Origin: an uncultured bacterium
GTDB taxonomy: Bacteria > Cyanobacteriota > Vampirovibrionia > Gastranaerophilales > Gastranaerophilaceae
Length of the DNA: 64,000 nucleotides
Direction of reading: 5' to 3'
Assembly (NCBI GenBank): GCA_902794035.1
Contig: CADBFN010000001.1
Location: forward strand, 21,599-85,598
A program made the translations under genes and the position numbers. The notes under the pieces are model-generated. The model searched no databases and was not told where the DNA came from. It was given only the letters and a program-made list of their open reading frames with translations. Within the stretch, counting starts at the first letter, position 1. Each line of letters starts with the position of its first letter. Below are positions 6,522 to 56,477 of the stretch, piece after piece.

Positions 6522-7895
6522 ATGTCAATTATCATAATGATTTTATTACTAAGTTTTTTGATTTTAGTTCATGAAGCCGGTCATTTTTTAGCGGCAAGAA
6601 TGCTTGGTATTAAAGTTGATAAATTTGGTTTTGGTTTACCTGTCGGACCAACATTATGGAGTAAAAAAGTCGGAGATATTGAGGTTTTGGTGCATGCCTG
6701 CCTGCTTGGCGGTTATGTTGCATTTCCTGATGATGATAAAGACTCCGATTTGCCAATGGACTCTAAAGACAGATTTATAAATCGCCCTGTCTGGCAGAGA
6801 ATGATTGTAATATCTGCAGGCGTTATCGCAAATATTATTACCGCAATTCTGCTTGTTATGTTTACAGCTGCAGTTTGGGGCAAACTGCCTTCAGGGAATT
6901 ATCAGGTATTTATAAACAGTATTACTGCAGAAAAAACTGAATCCGTCTGGCAAAGCGGTTTACAGAAAAATGACAGAATTATTAAAATAAACGGTTCTGA
7001 TATAAATTCAACATACGCAATTTCACTATATTCGAAAAACAGTGCACGCTATGACGGAAAAGTCAATGAAAAATCTGTTGAGCAAAATTTTGAAGTGCTA
7101 AAAAAACTTAACCCTGATATTAAGCAAGGGGCAATACCTGCAGGGATTTCGGTAAAACTGCCTGATAAAAAAATTACAGAATCACCATTAATAATAGGAG
7201 AAGAAGAATTAAAAGGGTATGTACCTTTTAATAATAAAGAAACAAAACTTTCACAAAATCAGATTGATTTAAGAGATAAATTAATCAATAATAACAAGCC
7301 ATATTACACCGCTGATGGGAATTTTACACTAAACGATCTGGCTTATGCACTTTCTGATAGCCTGAAACCATTAGAAATTACCGTTTTACGAGATAATAAA
7401 GAAATAAAACTGAAACCTGTTTACCCGAATAAAGAAGGTATGATTGGTATTTCTATGACGGCAAAACAGGAATTAGCCGTAACTAAAACTCCCGCTAAAA
7501 TATTTACGGAAAGCTGCAAATATATTTGGGAACAAACTTATATGCTTGTATATGGTCTGTGGCAGTTATTTAGCGGCAAAATTCCTGTAAAAGATTTGCA
7601 TGGTATTGTGGTTATCGCAAAAATCGGCGGAGATGTTATTCAAAACAGCGGAATATTCTCAGGATTACTGCTTACTGCAATGATTTCCATGGATTTGGCA
7701 TTAGTCAATTTTCTGCCAATACCGGCATTAGACGGCGGACATTTTATGTTCCTTGTTATTGAAAGACTCAGAGGAAAGCCTTTAAATCAGGAAAACATAG
7801 AAAAAATCAGCAATGTATTTTTCTTACTTTTGATTTTACTGATGATACTGATTATATTCAATGATGTTTATGCACTGGTAAAACATAAATTCTAG
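6522..7895 (+). CDS. rseP: RIP metalloprotease RseP (M50 site-2 protease)
   Basis: 457 aa with HEAGHF zinc motif, PDZ-like middle region and NFLPIPALDGGH motif. Confidence 0.9.
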   Translation: MSIIIMILLLSFLILVHEAGHFLAARMLGIKVDKFGFGLPVGPTLWSKKVGDIEVLVHACLLGGYVAFPDDDKDSDLPMDSKDRFINRPVWQRMIVISAGVIANIITAILLVMFTAAVWGKLPSGNYQVFINSITAEKTESVWQSGLQKNDRIIKINGSDINSTYAISLYSKNSARYDGKVNEKSVEQNFEVLKKLNPDIKQGAIPAGISVKLPDKKITESPLIIGEEELKGYVPFNNKETKLSQNQIDLRDKLINNNKPYYTADGNFTLNDLAYALSDSLKPLEITVLRDNKEIKLKPVYPNKEGMIGISMTAKQELAVTKTPAKIFTESCKYIWEQTYMLVYGLWQLFSGKIPVKDLHGIVVIAKIGGDVIQNSGIFSGLLLTAMISMDLALVNFLPIPALDGGHFMFLVIERLRGKPLNQENIEKISNVFFLLLILLMILIIFNDVYALVKHKF

Positions 7896-7904
7896 ATAAA
7901 AAGC

Positions 7905-9161
7905 TTAGTTATCTCTAAGACCGGGATCTGAATATGAGCCTGTTATAAGTTTATTAAAACCATACTGCAATTTTGGTAAAACAACCGCCAAAAGTGCGCT
8001 GCTGATTAAAACATTTGAAATAATATTAAATCCTTTTGCAAATTTTGCTTTCTTGACAAAATTTGTTATATTTGAGGATTTTTGCGCTGATTTAATAAAG
8101 TTTTCAAATTCGTTTTTGAACTGAGCCAAGTCCTTTACATCAACATATTTTCTCGGATCTCTAATTCCGTTTTTCAAATATGAAATTTTACCCTGAGAAC
8201 TTGCAATTTGAGAAAATAAACTATTTGGCTTATTATCAATGAATTCAAATATATCTTTTGCAGAATTTGATTTTGGCAGTTCGATATTACCATTTTTGAT
8301 TCCGTCAATTAAATCTTTATTTTCCATAATCAACGGATCAAGATTTACATTTAAACCAAATAATTTTTGTACGCTGTTATCCAAAAATTTTGCAATATAA
8401 ATCGGTGCAACAAAATTAAGAAACATAGAACCCAGCATTCTGAAAGCGTTTACTGCAGCTTCGTCTTTATTTCTTGATGTTGTAACCCTGCCAACAGTCA
8501 AACCGCCGTCTGTAATTGCCATTTTATCAACAGTTTTAAGATTTGCAATTGAACTAATCCAATTACCTGTGAAACTTACATCCTTTTTACCGGAAGTAAA
8601 TACAGTCATGGAAGGCTTTTTAATCTGAACAGACGGAGATTGGGAATTTTCTTTTCTGTTCTTTTTAATGTATCTTGTCAAAGCGAAATTAAGTTTTGGT
8701 AAAACAAAACCCATAACAATTATCGGAATTATAGTAGCCGCTGCGAATTTCCCTGCAGTTAATTTTTCTACAGTTTTACGGTTTAATTTGAATTTTTCTA
8801 ATTCTTTAACTTCCTCAACTGCAGTGTTTTTAAACTTATTTATATTATATTCAATACCCTGAAATTCTTCTTCTTTAAACAACTTTATGCTTGTTTTTGG
8901 ATTAAAACCCTTGCGTTTAATTACATATTTGTCATAAGTTTTTTCAACAAGAGGAATTCCACCCAACCATACAGCTGATGTCGGGTATTCATCAAGTAAC
9001 TTTTCTCTTGTTGCGTCATTTGCCTTTGTTTTTGATTCTTTGAGATTTTCTTTTCTTGTTATATATACTTTTGAAGGGACTTCAATTCCGCAATCTCTTA
9101 GTATTAAAGGGTAAACGCTTCTGTTATTTCCTATTGCCGATATTATGTTTGTAATTGTCAT
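7905..9161 (-). CDS. Uncharacterised membrane protein (418 aa) downstream of the His-leader switch
   Basis: ATG preceded by GAGGAA. Hydrophobic segments near residues 130-155 and 375-400. I recognise no family. Confidence 0.6.
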   Translation of the reverse strand: MTITNIISAIGNNRSVYPLILRDCGIEVPSKVYITRKENLKESKTKANDATREKLLDEYPTSAVWLGGIPLVEKTYDKYVIKRKGFNPKTSIKLFKEEEFQGIEYNINKFKNTAVEEVKELEKFKLNRKTVEKLTAGKFAAATIIPIIVMGFVLPKLNFALTRYIKKNRKENSQSPSVQIKKPSMTVFTSGKKDVSFTGNWISSIANLKTVDKMAITDGGLTVGRVTTSRNKDEAAVNAFRMLGSMFLNFVAPIYIAKFLDNSVQKLFGLNVNLDPLIMENKDLIDGIKNGNIELPKSNSAKDIFEFIDNKPNSLFSQIASSQGKISYLKNGIRDPRKYVDVKDLAQFKNEFENFIKSAQKSSNITNFVKKAKFAKGFNIISNVLISSALLAVVLPKLQYGFNKLITGSYSDPGLRDN

Positions 9162-9208
9162 ATTATTTTCCTCAATTCTGTTTAACTTAATCCTCTATAA
9201 ACTTCGAG

Positions 9209-9246
9209 GTTAAAAATAACCTCTTTGGGTGAATCCCATAGAGGTT
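9209..9246 (-). terminator. Candidate intrinsic terminator of the leader (helix 2:3)
   Basis: Minus strand AACCTCTATGGG-ATTCA-CCCAAAGAGGTT (11 of 12 bp) followed by ATTTTTAA. Confidence 0.45.
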
Positions 9247-9299
9247 ATTTACAGAATTGATTATATTTTTTTACAAAGACAACTCAACTCAAACAACCT

Positions 9300-9350
9300 C
9301 TATGGGTTTGTATGATGAGTATGATGATGTTTTTGTAAATAATTTTTCAT
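9300..9350 (-). CDS. 16-codon His-rich leader peptide MKNYLQKHHHTHHTNP
   Basis: AAGGAG SD 5 nt upstream of the ATG (9348-9350 rc). Codons CAT CAT CAT ACT CAT CAT. The TAG stop lies inside helix strand 1. Confidence 0.45.
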   Translation of the reverse strand: MKNYLQKHHHTHHTNP

Positions 9351-9367
9351 TTTTTCTCCTTGATTTT

Positions 9368-9395
9368 ATTATAACGCAATAATTATAAATGTAAA
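9368..9395 (-). promoter_or_regulatory. Sigma70-like promoter TTTACA-16 nt-TATAAT
   Basis: Read on the minus strand between the stop of the 188-aa gene and the leader SD. Confidence 0.45.
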
Positions 9396-9399
9396 TAAC

Positions 9400-9966
9400 T
9401 TATGCTCTTTTATCAGCTCTGTGAGCATTAATTTTGTTTACAATAAAATCAACTGCATAACCTGCTGCTAATACTGCTGCAAAACCTGCAACAATACCTG
9501 CACCGTATTTTACAGAAGGCTTTTTAGCGAATTCAGCTACAGATTTCCCTGCTTTCTTTATATTTTCAACATTGATTTTCTTAGCATTTTCTTTTAAAAA
9601 TTCTACACCTTCTTTAATGAATTTTCCGGATTTTTTAATACCGGATTTTAGATATGCCGGAATATTTTTTACAAAAGTCTTAACCGCTTCCATAGAAGGA
9701 ATTTTATTTTTAATATTTTTTGCAGCTGTTTTTATTCCTTCAAAATTTGTTTTATCAATTTTAGGAATATCCATTTTTATTATTTTTGCTTTGTTATAAA
9801 GTTTTTTAGCACCTTTTATTGCATATTTGCCGCCTAAAAATGCGGTTCCGCCTGCAACTGTTGCATCTGCAGCGATTTTACCATAATTCGATTCTGTATA
9901 TTGATTACCTTTGTTTGTATATGCCTGCTGTGTAAGAGGCGTTACTGCTGAAATCATGTTCTTCAC
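9400..9966 (-). CDS. Lys-rich tail-anchored protein of unknown function
   Basis: 188 aa with a single C-terminal hydrophobic helix (GAGIVAGFAAVLAAGYAV). Confidence 0.5.
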   Translation of the reverse strand: MKNMISAVTPLTQQAYTNKGNQYTESNYGKIAADATVAGGTAFLGGKYAIKGAKKLYNKAKIIKMDIPKIDKTNFEGIKTAAKNIKNKIPSMEAVKTFVKNIPAYLKSGIKKSGKFIKEGVEFLKENAKKINVENIKKAGKSVAEFAKKPSVKYGAGIVAGFAAVLAAGYAVDFIVNKINAHRADKRA

Positions 9967-10031
9967 CTTTCTTTTTGTAGTATGAAAGCATGAAAAAGCG
10001 TAAAAAAATAATTTGCTAGCAGAATATTAAA

Positions 10032-10313
10032 TTATAAAGTTTTTTTAAGTAAATCAATTTTTTCCTTATCAGAAGTCACAAACAAAATTGTTTTTTCCTT
10101 AGAAGTTTCTCCACGCACAATTTTTATTGATGTTTTGGGTATTTTAAATGTTTTCGATAAAAATTCTGTCAAACATTTATTAGCCTTCCCATCTATTGGT
10201 TGAGCGGTAATTTTTATTTTAACTTCATTCTCATTTTTTATTATTTCATTATTTTTTGAATTCGGCGAAATTTTTATATTGACAATTAGGCCGTTTTCAG
10301 TTTCTTTAATCAT
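10032..10313 (-). CDS. DUF167 (YggU) family protein
   Basis: 93 aa with ...AQPIDGKANKCLTEFLSKTF...IVRGETSKEK, typical of YggU. Confidence 0.8.
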   Translation of the reverse strand: MIKETENGLIVNIKISPNSKNNEIIKNENEVKIKITAQPIDGKANKCLTEFLSKTFKIPKTSIKIVRGETSKEKTILFVTSDKEKIDLLKKTL

Positions 10314-10335
10314 ATTTCAGATTTCTTTCATAATA

Positions 10336-10365
10336 AAAGGACATATCATTAGATATGCCCTTTTT
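10336..10365 (-). terminator. Hairpin + T-run downstream of the 206-aa gene
   Basis: Minus strand AAAGGGCATATC-taat-GATATGTCCTTTTATT. Confidence 0.5.
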
Positions 10366-10372
10366 ATCGTAC

Positions 10373-10993
10373 TTATTTAAATTCTGCTCTTTTGAACTGC
10401 ATACTGTTAAGCCACAAATCAAATTCATAATTTTGTTTTTTAGAATCTTTTATTTCAGTAATATAGTTAGATTTCCATGTAGCTCTTATGTTATGTATAA
10501 AAAATAAGTGCGTATCTTTAAAGCTTTCACCCTTCTTATACAAAATAATCAGTGATATCGGTTTATTTTCTAATTTACTTTGATTTTCAAATACAAATTT
10601 TTGCAATTGAGGACAAGGTTTGTTATTTACAACAGGAGTTGCCATAATTATATATTCATACTTCGCAACATCGGTATTTATATGTTCAAGTATAATTTTA
10701 TCTAAATCACCATTTTCCTCTTTTAATCTTTCATTTAATTCTGCAGCATCTTTTGGATACGGAACTGTAGTACGGACTTCGTAAGCCTTTGTTTTTAACC
10801 TCGTTTTAGCCATGTTCACTAAAGCAGGGACTTCATCATTCATTGTGCAATAAAAAATACCAACCTTATAATTTGACAATCCTTGAATCCCGGGATTTAT
10901 TTTGTGATACATAAAAAATAAATAGAATATAAAAATAACCACAGGTATTAATATAACAATAGCAATAGTGCGTATAATATTTTTGTTGTTCAT
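10373..10993 (-). CDS. Membrane-anchored protein of unknown function
   Basis: 206 aa with an N-terminal TM helix. A flavodoxin-like fold is possible but unproven. Confidence 0.45.
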   Translation of the reverse strand: MNNKNIIRTIAIVILIPVVIFIFYLFFMYHKINPGIQGLSNYKVGIFYCTMNDEVPALVNMAKTRLKTKAYEVRTTVPYPKDAAELNERLKEENGDLDKIILEHINTDVAKYEYIIMATPVVNNKPCPQLQKFVFENQSKLENKPISLIILYKKGESFKDTHLFFIHNIRATWKSNYITEIKDSKKQNYEFDLWLNSMQFKRAEFK

Positions 10994-26889: not shown

Positions 26890-29800
26890 TTACAGGTCTC
26901 CGAAAGTAGTTGGTGTTTCAAAGAAGTTGATATTCAACAACTCTGAATCAACATCTGACAGAGTTCTTTTTGGAGCAGCCTTTCTAAGATCGTCCATATC
27001 TGTCATCAAATCTACTTCTGTTCCGTCTTTTTTGGATACTGTGATATCCAAACCGATACTTTGCAATTCTCTTACAAGTACCTTGAAAGATTCAGGAATA
27101 CCAGGTCTTGGAATATTATCACCCTTAACAATTGCTTCATATGCTCTGTTTCTGCCATTAACATCATCTGATTTAATAGTCAGCATTTCCTGTAAAGTAT
27201 ATGCAGCACCGTAAGCTTCTAATGCCCAAACTTCCATTTCACCGAATCTTTGTCCGCCGAATTGAGCTTTACCACCCAAAGGCTGTTGAGTAACAAGTGA
27301 ATAAGGACCGGTACTTCTTGCGTGAATTTTATCATCTACCAAGTGAACAAGTTTTAAGAAGTATGTCAAACCAACTGCAACAGGTCTGTCAAACGGTTCA
27401 CCGGTTCTGCCGTCAATAAGCGTAACCTTACCGTCTTCGCCAACCCAAGTTGCACCTGATTTTTTAATACCTTCTAACAATTCACCTTTTGTAACGATTT
27501 CAGATTCATTTTCACCGTACATTTCATCAAAAGCAGGAGCTTCGTAATGTTTTCCGGTTAAATATGCAGCCAAACCTAACAATAATTCATAAGTTTGACC
27601 AACGTTCATACGGGAAGGTACACCTAGCGGATTCAAAACGATATCAACAGGTGTTCCGTCAGGTAAGAATGGCATATCTTCTTTTGGAAGAATTCTTGAA
27701 ACAATACCTTTGTTTCCGTGACGTCCAGAAAGTTTATCACCGACAGAAACCTTACGTTTTTGAGCGATATAAACTCGGATTACAGTATTTGCTCCAGGAG
27801 GTAATTCGTCACCTTTTTCTCTGTCAAATACCTTAACGTCGAGAACTCTGCCGCCACCGCCATGAGGTACTCTTAATGAATTATCTTTTACATCTCTTGC
27901 TTTTTCTGCAAAGATTGCTCTTAATAATTTTTCTTCAGGTGGATGTTCAGATTCACCTTTTGGTGTAACTTTACCGACCAAAATATCATCAGGATAAACT
28001 CTGGCTCCTATTCTGACAATACCTCTTTCATCCAAATGACGAAGTGCATCTTCAGATACATTCGGAATTTCACGGGTAATTTCTTCAGGTCCAAGTTTTG
28101 TCTGACGAGCTTCTATTTCTAATTTTTCAATGTGTAATGAAGTAAAGATATCATCATGTACGCATCTTTCAGAAAGTAAAATCGCGTCTTCATAGTTATA
28201 GCCTTCCCAAGGCATATAAGCAACGAGAATGTTTTTACCTAATGAAAGTTCACCGCCGCAAGTAGATGCACCATCTGCGATTACATCACCTGCTTTAACC
28301 TTATCACCTTCATGTACGATAGGTCTTTGGTTAATACAAGTATCCTGGTTACTTCTTACATATTTCATTAATGTATATATATGTTGTTTGTTATGTTGAT
28401 CTCTGATTACAATTTCTTCACCAACAACTCTTTCAACGGTACCATCGACATCAGCAACGATAACCATACCTGAGTCTTTTGCAACACGAGATTCAAGACC
28501 TGTACCAACTCTTGGTCTTTGAGTAATCAAAAGAGGTACTGCCTGACGTTGCATGTTTGATCCCATCAAAGCACGGTTAGCATCATCGTGTTCAATAAAC
28601 GGAATCATTGATGTTGCAACAGAAATAATCTGAATTGGACAAACACCGACATAGTCAACTTTAGATGCAGGTTCCATAACGAATTCTGAACGATATCTTA
28701 CAGGAACAATGTCATCTTTAAATGTTCTGTCTTTATTTAATTTGACATCAGCAGGTGCGCAACGGTAGTTTTCATCGGCATCAGCAGTCATATAAACAAC
28801 TTCATCAGTTACTACACCATCTTTTACAACAAAGAACGGAGATTCGATAAAGCCGTAATCATTAACTCTGGCGTGAGTAGCCAATGAACCGATCAAACCT
28901 GCGTTAGGACCTTCCGGAGTTTCGATAGGACAAATACGTCCGTAGTGAGAAGGGTGAATATCACGAACAGGGAAACCTGCTCTTTCTCTTTGTAAACCAC
29001 CAGGCCCTAATGCTGAAATACGTCTTTTGTGAGTTAATTCAGCAAGCGGATTTGTCTGATCCATAAATTGTGATAACTGAGAAGATCCAAAGAATTCTTT
29101 TAATGAAGCAACCAAAGGTTTGGTGTTCAATAAGTTCAACGGAGTTAAGGTTTCAGAATCCTGCAGGGTCATTCTTTCTTTAACTATTCTTTCAATTCTT
29201 GAAAGACCGACTCTGAATTGGTTTTGTAACAATTCACCAACTGAACGGATTCTTCTGTTACCCAAGTGATCGATATCATCCAGTGTACCTTCATCATAAG
29301 TTAAGTTGATTAAGTACTCGATAGTTGAAACGATATCTTCAACCGTTAATGTTCTTTGGTTCTTAGGAATATTTAAATTTAATTTTCTGTTTAATTTATA
29401 ACGACCTACACGACCGATATCATATTTTTTAGCATCAAAGAATCTTGATTCTAAAATTTGGCGTCCGCCCTGAGGAGATGCAGGATCACCCGGTCTTAAT
29501 TTTTTGTATAAATCAATTAATGCATCATCAGTTGTTTCAGCTGTATCTTTATCCAAAGTTTTCTTTAAGAAATCAAAGTGAGTAAATTTAGATTCCATTT
29601 CTGCAACCGTAATACCCATAGCTTTTAATAAAGTTGTAGCTAAAATCTTTCTGTTTTTATCAATTTTAACGTGAATGATGTCATTAGCATCAGTTTCAAA
29701 TTTTACCCATGCTCCGCGGTTTGGAATCATTGTAGCATTGTACAAACGTTTTCCGTTTGGAGAAATGGTTTTGTCAAAATAAACACCAGGAGAACGAACG

Positions 29801-55571: not shown

Positions 55572-56477
55572 ATGGATTTTAAAGAAATATTTACCGATAT
55601 ACCTGTATTAATCGTACTTACCACTTTTGTATTTTCAATATTGTACTGCAGTATTCAATACATCAAGGTAAATAGAAATTTAAAAAAAATTATTAAATTT
55701 ATATCCACATTTAAAAAGAATGATTTAAACTTCAGATTTAAAGAACTTGACAGCTGGATGTTATCGGATCCTTACGTTGCAAATATGTGGATAGAATTTA
55801 AAAATACATTGGTATTTTCAGAATCAGTAGCACTTAAAGACGGGGATGATTACCAATATCAAGACGTATCTTCAACGGTACAAAATGTGCAAACAACTGT
55901 TGATCCTATGTATTTTTTCAATGAAGAAGCACTTGTTACATCAAAATTTAATTATAAAATGATACTGGCAATCCCGACTATTTTAACAGGTTTCGGGCCG
56001 TTATTTACATTTATGAAAATTGCTATTGCATTTGGTATGATTGACTTTTCATCACCTGAAAAGACAATCAATTCCGTTGCAGCATTCATGCAGGGTATGC
56101 AGGCTGCAGCATTTGTATCAGTATTTGCGGTATCAACATCTTTGACATACTTACTTATAGAAAAAACTTTATTCCAACAACTATGTAAAAAACCTTTGGG
56201 TAAAATTCAAAATATCGTAGGCGAATTATTTGCAAGTATTTCATCTGAAAAATTCTTATACGAATTATTAAAAGAATCAAAAATTCAAAATAATTCAGCC
56301 GCAAATATTATCGGAACGATGCCAAAACAATTCAAAAGCGCATTTAATGAAACAATGGCTGCAAATCTGGTACCGTATCTGGAAAATCTTATTTTTGGTT
56401 TGAATCAGTTAAATAAACAAATGAAAGAAGTTGCCAAAGGGGCAAGAGGTAATGACGAAGTAGATGGATTATTCTAG
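55572..56477 (+). CDS. MotA/ExbB/ZorA-like ion-channel subunit (3 TM)
   Basis: 301 aa. TM1 at aa ~10-30. A TM2-TM3 hairpin contains PTILTGFGPLFTFM, reminiscent of the GLLGT channel helix. ~100-aa C-terminal tail. GGAGGA SD. Confidence 0.5.
   Translation: MDFKEIFTDIPVLIVLTTFVFSILYCSIQYIKVNRNLKKIIKFISTFKKNDLNFRFKELDSWMLSDPYVANMWIEFKNTLVFSESVALKDGDDYQYQDVSSTVQNVQTTVDPMYFFNEEALVTSKFNYKMILAIPTILTGFGPLFTFMKIAIAFGMIDFSSPEKTINSVAAFMQGMQAAAFVSVFAVSTSLTYLLIEKTLFQQLCKKPLGKIQNIVGELFASISSEKFLYELLKESKIQNNSAANIIGTMPKQFKSAFNETMAANLVPYLENLIFGLNQLNKQMKEVAKGARGNDEVDGLF

Follow-up and report, generated by a model that had tools for sequence, protein, structure and literature searches.

The 64,000-nucleotide (nt) stretch of DNA analysed here, called the window below, is part of contig CADBFN010000001.1 (positions 21,599 to 85,598; assembly GCA_902794035.1) from an uncultured rumen or gut bacterium of the Gastranaerophilaceae. 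The element in question occupies the spacer at 9162-9399, between a gene for a protein of 188 amino acids (aa) and a gene for a 418-aa membrane protein. Coordinates are window positions, and all attenuator elements lie on the minus strand (Table 1). The spacer holds a promoter, a Shine-Dalgarno (SD) motif, a 16-codon open reading frame (ORF) with five CAT codons, three strands (S1, S2, and S3) of which S2 can pair with either of the others, and a T-run. A preliminary description of this DNA had named these elements and proposed a His-dependent attenuator; direct reading and a script bore out the promoter, the SD, the ORF with its stop codon (TAG, 9302-9300) inside S1, both strand pairings, and the T-run. 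The promoter matches at 11 of 12 positions and is the top promoter-like site in a hexamer scan of 7500-10500; a transcription start ~10-12 nt ahead of the leader ATG is proposed. The locus thus has an ORF with its own start, SD, and promoter, a cluster of codons for one amino acid, an intrinsic terminator, and an antiterminator that shares a strand with it. The window contains a single short ORF with 5 or more His among 7 residues, and 100 Markov-1 simulations yielded none. No second copy of the attenuator was found in the 64-kb window, neither as a further S2-like word nor as another convincing His-rich short ORF; the sole other match to a His-rich short ORF was a 10-codon ORF at 28266-28298.

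The elements are arranged in the order A (His codons), S1, aaSD, B, aSD, S2, B' (terminator loop), S3 with the T-run, SDp (overlapping the SD), and ATG. With the flanking AAAT/ATTT, the S2:S3 stem comprises 16 base pairs (bp) with one mismatch (-19.4 kcal/mol) and an ATTCA loop, and a search for hairpins plus T-tails gave -16.3 kcal/mol for the terminator hairpin. The S2 word, allowing at most one mismatch, is found only at these three places in the window. The minimum free energy (MFE) of the 218-nt leader is -52.5 kcal/mol, compared with -31.8 +/- 4.0 kcal/mol in shuffled sequences (z = -5.25; 0/200 as good). When the leader is free of ribosomes, the MFE structure contains a protector hairpin, A:B, that encloses S1. 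A 10-bp pairing with the SD-adjoining ACAGAATTGA had also been described; it is present, conserved, and covarying, but its partner TCAATTCTGT sits at 9260-9251 and not at 9253-9262. Likewise, the GAGGTTA/TAACCTC hairpin drawn across the T-run exists, but only some of the closest relatives have it, and it does not belong to the core; it would form 7 bp between 9223-9217 and 9212-9206 with a TTTT loop. CCTC at 9209-9206 can alternatively pair with GAGG at 9195-9192. The CCCTC...GAGG insertion element is present in the related loci L003, L005, L007, and L051, absent from L001 and L002, and variable or absent in other clades. The A:B hairpin, the His-free composition of the target, a clade with SD sequestration, and a further helix (B:B') had been overlooked in the preliminary description.

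Table 1. Elements of the predicted attenuator and its target gene in the window
Feature	Position	Strand	Sequence or role	Basis or remark
418-aa gene (regulated gene)	7905-9161	-	Three hydrophobic segments, 0 His	
Promoter	-35, 9395-9390; -10, 9373-9368	-	TTTACA, 16-nt spacer, TATAAT	Direct reading and script re-check
Leader SD	9361-9356	-	AAGGAG	5 nt ahead of ATG at 9350
Leader ORF	9350-9300	-	MKNYLQKHHHTHHTNP, 16 codons and stop	Direct reading
Regulatory codons	9312-9329	-	CAT x3 (9329-9321), ACT, CAT x2 (9317-9312)	
S1	9306-9295	-	CCCATAGAGGTT, predicted antiterminator 5' strand	Holds leader stop codon
S2 core	9246-9235	-	AACCTCTATGGG	12/12 pairing with S1, duplex -19.5 kcal/mol
S2 full	9250-9235	-	AAATAACCTCTATGGG, strand common to antiterminator (with S1) and terminator (with S3)	
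S3 core	9229-9218	-	CCCAAAGAGGTT	11/12 pairing with S2; ATTTTTAA next
S3 full	9229-9214	-	CCCAAAGAGGTTATTT, predicted terminator 3' strand	
T-run	9216-9212	-	TTTTT	Premature 3' ends predicted at ~9212-9208
Protector hairpin A:B	9339-9270	-	TTTACAAA and His codons, pairing with GAGTTGAGTTG...TTTGTAAA	MFE structures
Antiterminator extension	9290-9284	-	GAGTTGA, pairing with TCAATTC (9260-9254)	Stalled-ribosome fold
Alternating strand	9260-9251	-	TCAATTCTGT, pairing with 9290-9284 (ON) or with ACAGAATTGA beside the SD (OFF)	
Outer-helix 3' strand	9181-9172	-	ACAGAATTGA	Overlaps SD GAGG (9173-9170) of the 418-aa gene
Post-terminator hairpin	9211-9189	-	CCTC...GAGG	MFE; within an insertion confined to part of the closest clade

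Eighty homologous loci were fetched from metagenome-assembled genomes of rumen and gut samples that are labelled Candidatus Gastranaerophilales, Melainabacteria, or Vampirovibrio or are unlabelled; a few of the source bins bear other, probably mistaken, names. The preliminary description had suggested looking for the leader ORF and its His run at orthologous loci, and a short ORF with 3-5 His precedes the orthologue in 78/78 loci with upstream DNA, at protein identities of 49-80%. Its stop codon falls within or beside S1, mostly 100-140 nt ahead of the main ATG. Among 79 leaders, 44 contain four His residues, 29 contain five, and 6 contain three, encoded by 321 CAT and 18 CAC codons. Both the number and the spacing of the His residues vary (HHHTHH, HHNHH, HYHHH, and HHKHNH), and the residues flanking the run differ by clade (..FLQKHHHNHHINLKGL, ..TRQHHNHHIVPIRL, ..LKLHHTHHHSVLGRL, and ..KLHHHTHTNPKGLGVL). 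In clade II, the largest, the leader ATG and S1 are separated by 44 or 47 nt, and the frame is always preserved, in contrast to the non-coding spacers, whose lengths take all values modulo 3. A promoter scoring at least 9/12 stands at the same place in 72/79 loci, the end of its -10 hexamer being a median of 21 nt ahead of the leader ATG, and an SD-like motif precedes that ATG in 72/79. The conserved nucleotides of the leader coincide with the helices. Taken together, these features of the leaders argue for translation of the ORF, in which the His codons alone are important as codons. In three loci (L068, L069, and L077; leader ATG at 2848, 1238, and 2841, respectively) the best -10 hexamer ends 6 nt from the ATG and no SD was found; these ORFs may be translated from leaderless transcripts.

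An ORF of this kind could in principle have arisen by chance beside the terminator of the upstream 188-aa gene, and in this AT-rich genome hexamers resembling promoters are frequent (a 3-kb region has 18, with 15.8 expected). However, the ORF is unique in the window and has no counterpart in the simulations, it is conserved in every locus, its promoter keeps a position between the upstream gene and the terminator, and the helices covary. Conservation refutes the chance origin, whose probability we regard as negligible.

Covariation was analysed in a MAFFT alignment of 47 sequences from four clades. The consensus structure computed by RNAalifold from 38 leaders consists of S1:S2 and aaSD:aSD. 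S1:S2 is paired in 92% of the cells, and 9 of its 14 pairs are changed on both sides. Together with aaSD:aSD it has 63 cells changed on both sides, compared with 23.6 +/- 3.9 after shuffling (0/500), and controls in which the strands were slid are 37-56% paired against 90%. The competing terminator S2:S3 is 91.5% paired with compensatory changes in 8 of 10 pairs. For the outer helix aSD:SDp, 97.6% of the cells are paired, and compensation is seen in three pairs (TCAATT/AATTGA to CCGATT/AATCGG), so that this helix and S2:S3 jointly show compensation in 11 of 18 pairs, with 94% of the cells paired. For the protector hairpin A:B (alignment A3), 81.8% of the cells are paired and 11 of 14 pairs are changed on both sides; the extension helix of the relatives (AGRATTGR with TCAATTCT, aaSD:aSD) is 86.6% paired. 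Covariation of S1:S2 and S2:S3 was a further check proposed in the preliminary description, and compensatory changes are present in both. Such covariation of a single strand, S2, with each of two partners is characteristic of a switch.

The effect of a ribosome on these helices was modelled by folding leaders up to the end of S3 while a footprint from -15 to +12 nt, counted from the first A-site base, was kept unpaired. Without a ribosome, the predicted probability of the terminator averages 0.76 over 47 leaders and is 0.95 in the window. It falls to 0.15 (window, 0.00) with the A-site on the first His codon and to 0.20 (0.00) on the middle one, and it is 0.73 (0.81) on the last His codon and 0.83 (0.96) on the stop codon. 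In a codon-by-codon scan, the minimum (0.09-0.20) covers codons one to four of the run and is directly followed by a jump to 0.58-0.83, which indicates that the His codons are the last positions at which a stalled ribosome leaves S1 free. The constrained folds reproduce what had been proposed from the letters, namely an antiterminator upon stalling at the early His codons and a terminator when the ribosome reaches the stop. The modelled behaviour is that of the classical design, including super-attenuation without translation of the leader.

These results also bear on a different reading, in which the product of the short ORF is itself functional, as a His-rich micropeptide that might, for instance, bind metal and partner the membrane protein, and the hairpins are ordinary mRNA structure. 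His-rich peptides can bind Ni, Zn, or Cu; no peptide feature other than the His cluster is shared by all clades, and distant homologues of the 418-aa protein also bear a conserved upstream small ORF, as described below. Selection on a peptide agrees poorly, however, with a variable number and spacing of His residues and with N- and C-terminal residues that are wholly different between clades. In clade II, the residues at one variable position (R/G/K/E) follow RNA pairing and not chemistry: the A/G position that varies in their codon faces a U of S2. The micropeptide would further leave unexplained why three mutually exclusive helices covary, why the His codons stand exactly where a stalled ribosome flips the fold, and why the target protein is free of His. 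We therefore consider it highly improbable.

Based on the sequence elements, their conservation, the covariation of the helices, the footprint thermodynamics, and the His-free composition of the target, we propose the following mechanism, in which the stalling and the termination themselves, the inducing effect of His starvation, and the protein's role are inferred. On a leader that carries no ribosome, A:B would hold the His-codon region, S2:S3 would form, and the polymerase would terminate near 9212; the protector hairpin explains termination without translation. When charged tRNA-His is plentiful, the ribosome would proceed to the TAG within S1 and mask this strand, again leaving S2 to S3 and leading to termination. 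When charged tRNA-His is scarce, the ribosome would stall on the first four of the five His codons, melt A:B, and leave S1 free. S1, extended by the GAGTTGA:TCAATTC pairing, would then capture S2 as it emerges, the terminator would fail to form, and transcription would read through into the 418-aa gene. Capture of S2 would also withdraw TCAATTCTGT from its alternative pairing with ACAGAATTGA at the SD, and translation initiation may gain from this. Judged from sequence comparison and folding models, we put the probability that the spacer holds a ribosome-mediated leader-peptide attenuator sensing His-tRNA at roughly 85%, and such an attenuator very probably switches on the membrane protein when histidine is short.

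Several observations weigh against this mechanism. The T-run of the window has only five T, and S2:S3 was absent from the output of a simple terminator scan, the internal A.A mismatch being the probable reason. The changes in aaSD:aSD are one-sided only, and this helix is lost in clade III. The kinship of the sequences inflates the shuffle statistics, although the slid controls nonetheless support the helices. The full-length window transcript, when folded to equilibrium, keeps the terminator and the outer helix despite a stalled ribosome, and the decision would thus have to be kinetic (co-transcriptional), as in classical attenuators. Modelled SD accessibility changes little in clades I-III, where the translational arm is consequently weak. 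Finally, a covarying helix, B:B', is not explained by the ribosome model.

B:B' (5-10 bp) joins the segment after the leader stop to the terminator loop and covaries in the relatives L008-L080 (e.g., L028:2895-2975). Duplexes with the leader's own loop have a mean energy of -8.13 kcal/mol, compared with -6.17 kcal/mol for the loops of other leaders (0/2,000 permutations), and the helix would form a pseudoknot with either the terminator or the antiterminator state. In the window it has decayed to a weak remnant (9279-9274 with 9226-9221), and the terminator loop has only 5 nt. As a speculation, since B' adjoins S3, the helix might be stacked onto the stem of the terminator and hold the large loop in place whenever B is available; the short loop and the decayed helix of the window fit this idea. 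A pseudoknot-type helix outside the ribosome model, in an RNA as strongly structured as this one, is also what might be expected of a riboswitch-like, protein-binding, or tRNA-binding element that works independently of translation of the short ORF. At the gathering score, a tRNA was the only Rfam match in the window, with no His_leader (RF00514) and no T-box. An E-value search of 9100-9450 likewise gave no His_leader, T-box, or riboswitch, the best match having 26 bits against a gathering score of 60, and the sub-threshold matches are at chance level. Such an element would hardly account for a start codon, SD, frame, and stop kept in 78/78 loci with indels in threes. Moreover, no conserved unpaired core resembling a ligand pocket is evident, nearly all conserved bases lying in the alternative helices. 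A translation-independent RNA element is accordingly very unlikely.

The leaders differ in the device that the His-tRNA-sensing switch is predicted to act on. In clades I-III, 54/54 loci have a T-tailed hairpin after the leader, and in clade IV 2/7 loci do. Clade V, the most divergent, keeps S1, S2, S3, and B:B', and none of its loci has a hairpin with a T-rich tail at the usual position; in 2 of 18 loci one is found inside an insertion at a different position. The leaders of clade V instead contain an upstream anti-SD, CUCCUUU, which is the exact complement of the SD AAAGGAG, and a GGAGU mimic within the leader. The model gives this SD an accessibility of 0.15 when no ribosome is present and of 0.51-0.54 when one is stalled at the His codons. 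Clade V looks like a translational version of the same switch, in which SD sequestration replaces the terminator. SD sequestration was also considered as the main mechanism in the window and was rejected, as the modelled accessibility hardly changes in clades I-III. In these models, the same sensor is coupled to termination in some lineages and to SD sequestration in others.

The 418-aa protein has 2,461 homologues, forming 420 clusters at 50% identity, and none of them is named. Pfam gave no match for it or for 10 distant homologues, and NCBIfam gave only TraB at 16.7 bits against a cut-off of 178. No sequence or profile match was found in the PDB; the AlphaFold2 model is all-helical (pLDDT 79.7), and its best Foldseek match against the PDB had E = 0.66. 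Known histidine transporters (the HisXYZ ABC transporter, YuiF, and HisJQMP) were considered as the target and rejected, there being no Pfam or NCBIfam match. A VLPKL(N/Q)(F/Y) motif follows two of the hydrophobic segments, at residues 150-160 and 390-400. An internal duplication around VLPKL was rejected, since BLASTP of the two halves was not significant (E = 0.17). Operon context gives no clue to function: the gene is monocistronic in the window, where its downstream neighbour is convergent. The following same-strand gene in many clade II loci, a putative RNase Y gene, lies ~205-217 nt downstream and is apparently a separate unit.

The composition of the protein is striking. Among 78 orthologues, 63 contain no His and 15 contain one, against a median of 1.56% for the ORFs of the window, and the top 118 full-length homologues average 0.04 His, compared with ~1-12 in distant homologues. 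A His leader paired with a His-free product fits a protein that is needed while charged tRNA-His is in short supply, and a protein purged of His could still be produced under such starvation. It is well established that starvation-induced proteins are depleted of the element or amino acid that is limiting. If the proposed regulation is true, this pair, neither member of which is seen in distant homologues, illustrates a starvation-induced protein that avoids the limiting amino acid. A role of the protein in the uptake of histidine or peptides would be a guess.

The purge of His also bears on the idea that the leader reports something other than histidine supply, such as a general slowdown of translation or the modification of tRNA-His, for example queuosine at position 34, which concerns NAU codons. 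In the model, termination also drops upon a stall at any position in the leader's first half; nearly every His codon is CAT, Asn leads the non-His residues within the run (26/106), and Tyr occurs there. However, CAT is expected in a genome of ~30-35% G+C, and the run contains Thr (22), Ile (13), and Lys (11) at comparable frequencies; the residues are not specifically Asn, Tyr, or Asp, and the queuosine idea was rejected on this ground. As the target has been purged of His specifically, which points to histidine itself, we consider a signal other than histidine supply unlikely.

Upstream regions of more distant homologues were also fetched. Five loci have an upstream short ORF without a His run and one has no leader, and these six proteins contain 4-8 His. 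An intermediate homologue, P0128 (L085:676-751 and L086:148-223), has 3 His and a decayed leader, MTKFYLTTEYHYSHSNPKGLWILM (EYHYSHS), with two His codons; Tyr (TAT) stands in place of some CAT codons, and S1 and S2 are still recognisable. The upstream short ORF of the distant homologues is conserved as M..(I/T)RRN...(L)MNL(V/I/A)WGL followed by a stop codon 19-35 nt from the main ATG (L081:231-320; L087:1314-1482; L088:92-170; L090:1034-1169, the same in L091; and L092:1085-1166). Its C-terminal NL.WGL is kept through synonymous changes, which suggests selection at the peptide level. From its sequence, this ORF perhaps encodes an arrest or regulatory peptide, and it may be related to the ...INLKGL end of His leaders. 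One could imagine, with considerable doubt, that the whole family is controlled by an upstream regulatory peptide, possibly a nascent-chain sensor in the distant members, that turned into a His-tRNA sensor in gut and rumen Gastranaerophilales while the protein was purged of His and became a dedicated effector of histidine starvation, perhaps a new kind of protein for the uptake of histidine or peptides or for membrane remodelling.

The proposed mechanism is textbook and is known from hisL, the his attenuator of Escherichia coli and Salmonella (Rfam His_leader, RF00514; summarised in PMC9413887). Both systems have an ORF with a His run, a protector hairpin including the His codons, mutually exclusive antiterminator and terminator, and a U-run. 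They also share termination both without translation and with fast translation, and read-through upon a His stall, here as modelled. The His codons number five and are interrupted here, whereas hisL has seven in a row in Proteobacteria; the present host belongs to Melainabacteria, its leader has no Rfam match and carries an outer helix to the SD, and its target is a monocistronic gene for an orphan membrane protein and not a his biosynthetic operon. In Firmicutes, His-leader attenuators have been predicted for the his operon, the hisXYZ transporter, and hisS paralogues/hisZ, some of them ahead of transport genes (PMC9413887, PMC2965389). Those leaders are alike in being independently evolved, in having 3-5 His codons with a terminator and an antiterminator, and in having been found by comparative genomics, but their targets are recognisable histidine genes, whereas the present target matches no family and is His-free. 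Histidine-specific T-box riboswitches, which read charged versus uncharged tRNA-His and control his genes and transporters (PMC9413887), differ in that sensing here would require translation of an ORF; none was detected by Rfam.

Replacement of the terminator by a structure that sequesters the ribosome-binding site is known among leader-peptide attenuators (PMC9413887), and clade V and most of clade IV resemble these in lacking the T-run and in pairing an anti-SD with the SD. Here, in contrast, both platforms are found in one orthologous family, and the version with the terminator retains the helix adjoining the SD. In Salmonella mgtL/mgtP, a leader with Pro codons precedes a non-biosynthetic gene. 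Poly-Cys short ORFs of mycobacteria are reported to control non-cognate genes (bioRxiv 10.1101/834739). Both examples share codon-specific stalling in an upstream ORF and a target outside the cognate biosynthesis, while the amino acid, the phylum, and the RNA architecture are all different from those described here.

Leader-peptide attenuation has been described for Proteobacteria, Actinobacteria, and Firmicutes (PMC2965389, PMC9413887). The library searched contained no report of it in Melainabacteria/Vampirovibrionia and nothing usable on histidine auxotrophy of Gastranaerophilales. What is new here is the independent origin, the phylum, the orphan His-free target, the link to the SD, and the two platforms; the surprise lies in the target and the lineage and not in the principle. 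If the proposal is true, leader-peptide attenuation extends to Melainabacteria/Vampirovibrionia, and a conserved family of orphan membrane proteins gains its first functional handle, being expressed when His-tRNA is scarce and having a composition apparently adapted to this. A single orthologous family with a transcriptional and a translational switch would also offer a compact system for the exchange of expression platforms.

Two further ORFs of at least 150 aa in the window lack His, one of 301 aa (~55572-56477, plus strand) and one of 150 aa (minus strand, offset 19352 in the reverse complement); no His-rich leader was seen near either. Upstream of the attenuator, the YggU/DUF167 gene (yggU; 10032-10313, minus strand) is kept in 50 loci and has no obvious link to histidine. 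The intervening 188-aa gene (9400-9966, minus strand) encodes a fast-evolving, Lys-rich protein with a C-terminal hydrophobic segment, which tblastn finds in only 10 loci. Its stop codon is only 4 nt from the -35 hexamer of the leader promoter, and read-through from upstream into the leader is therefore possible.

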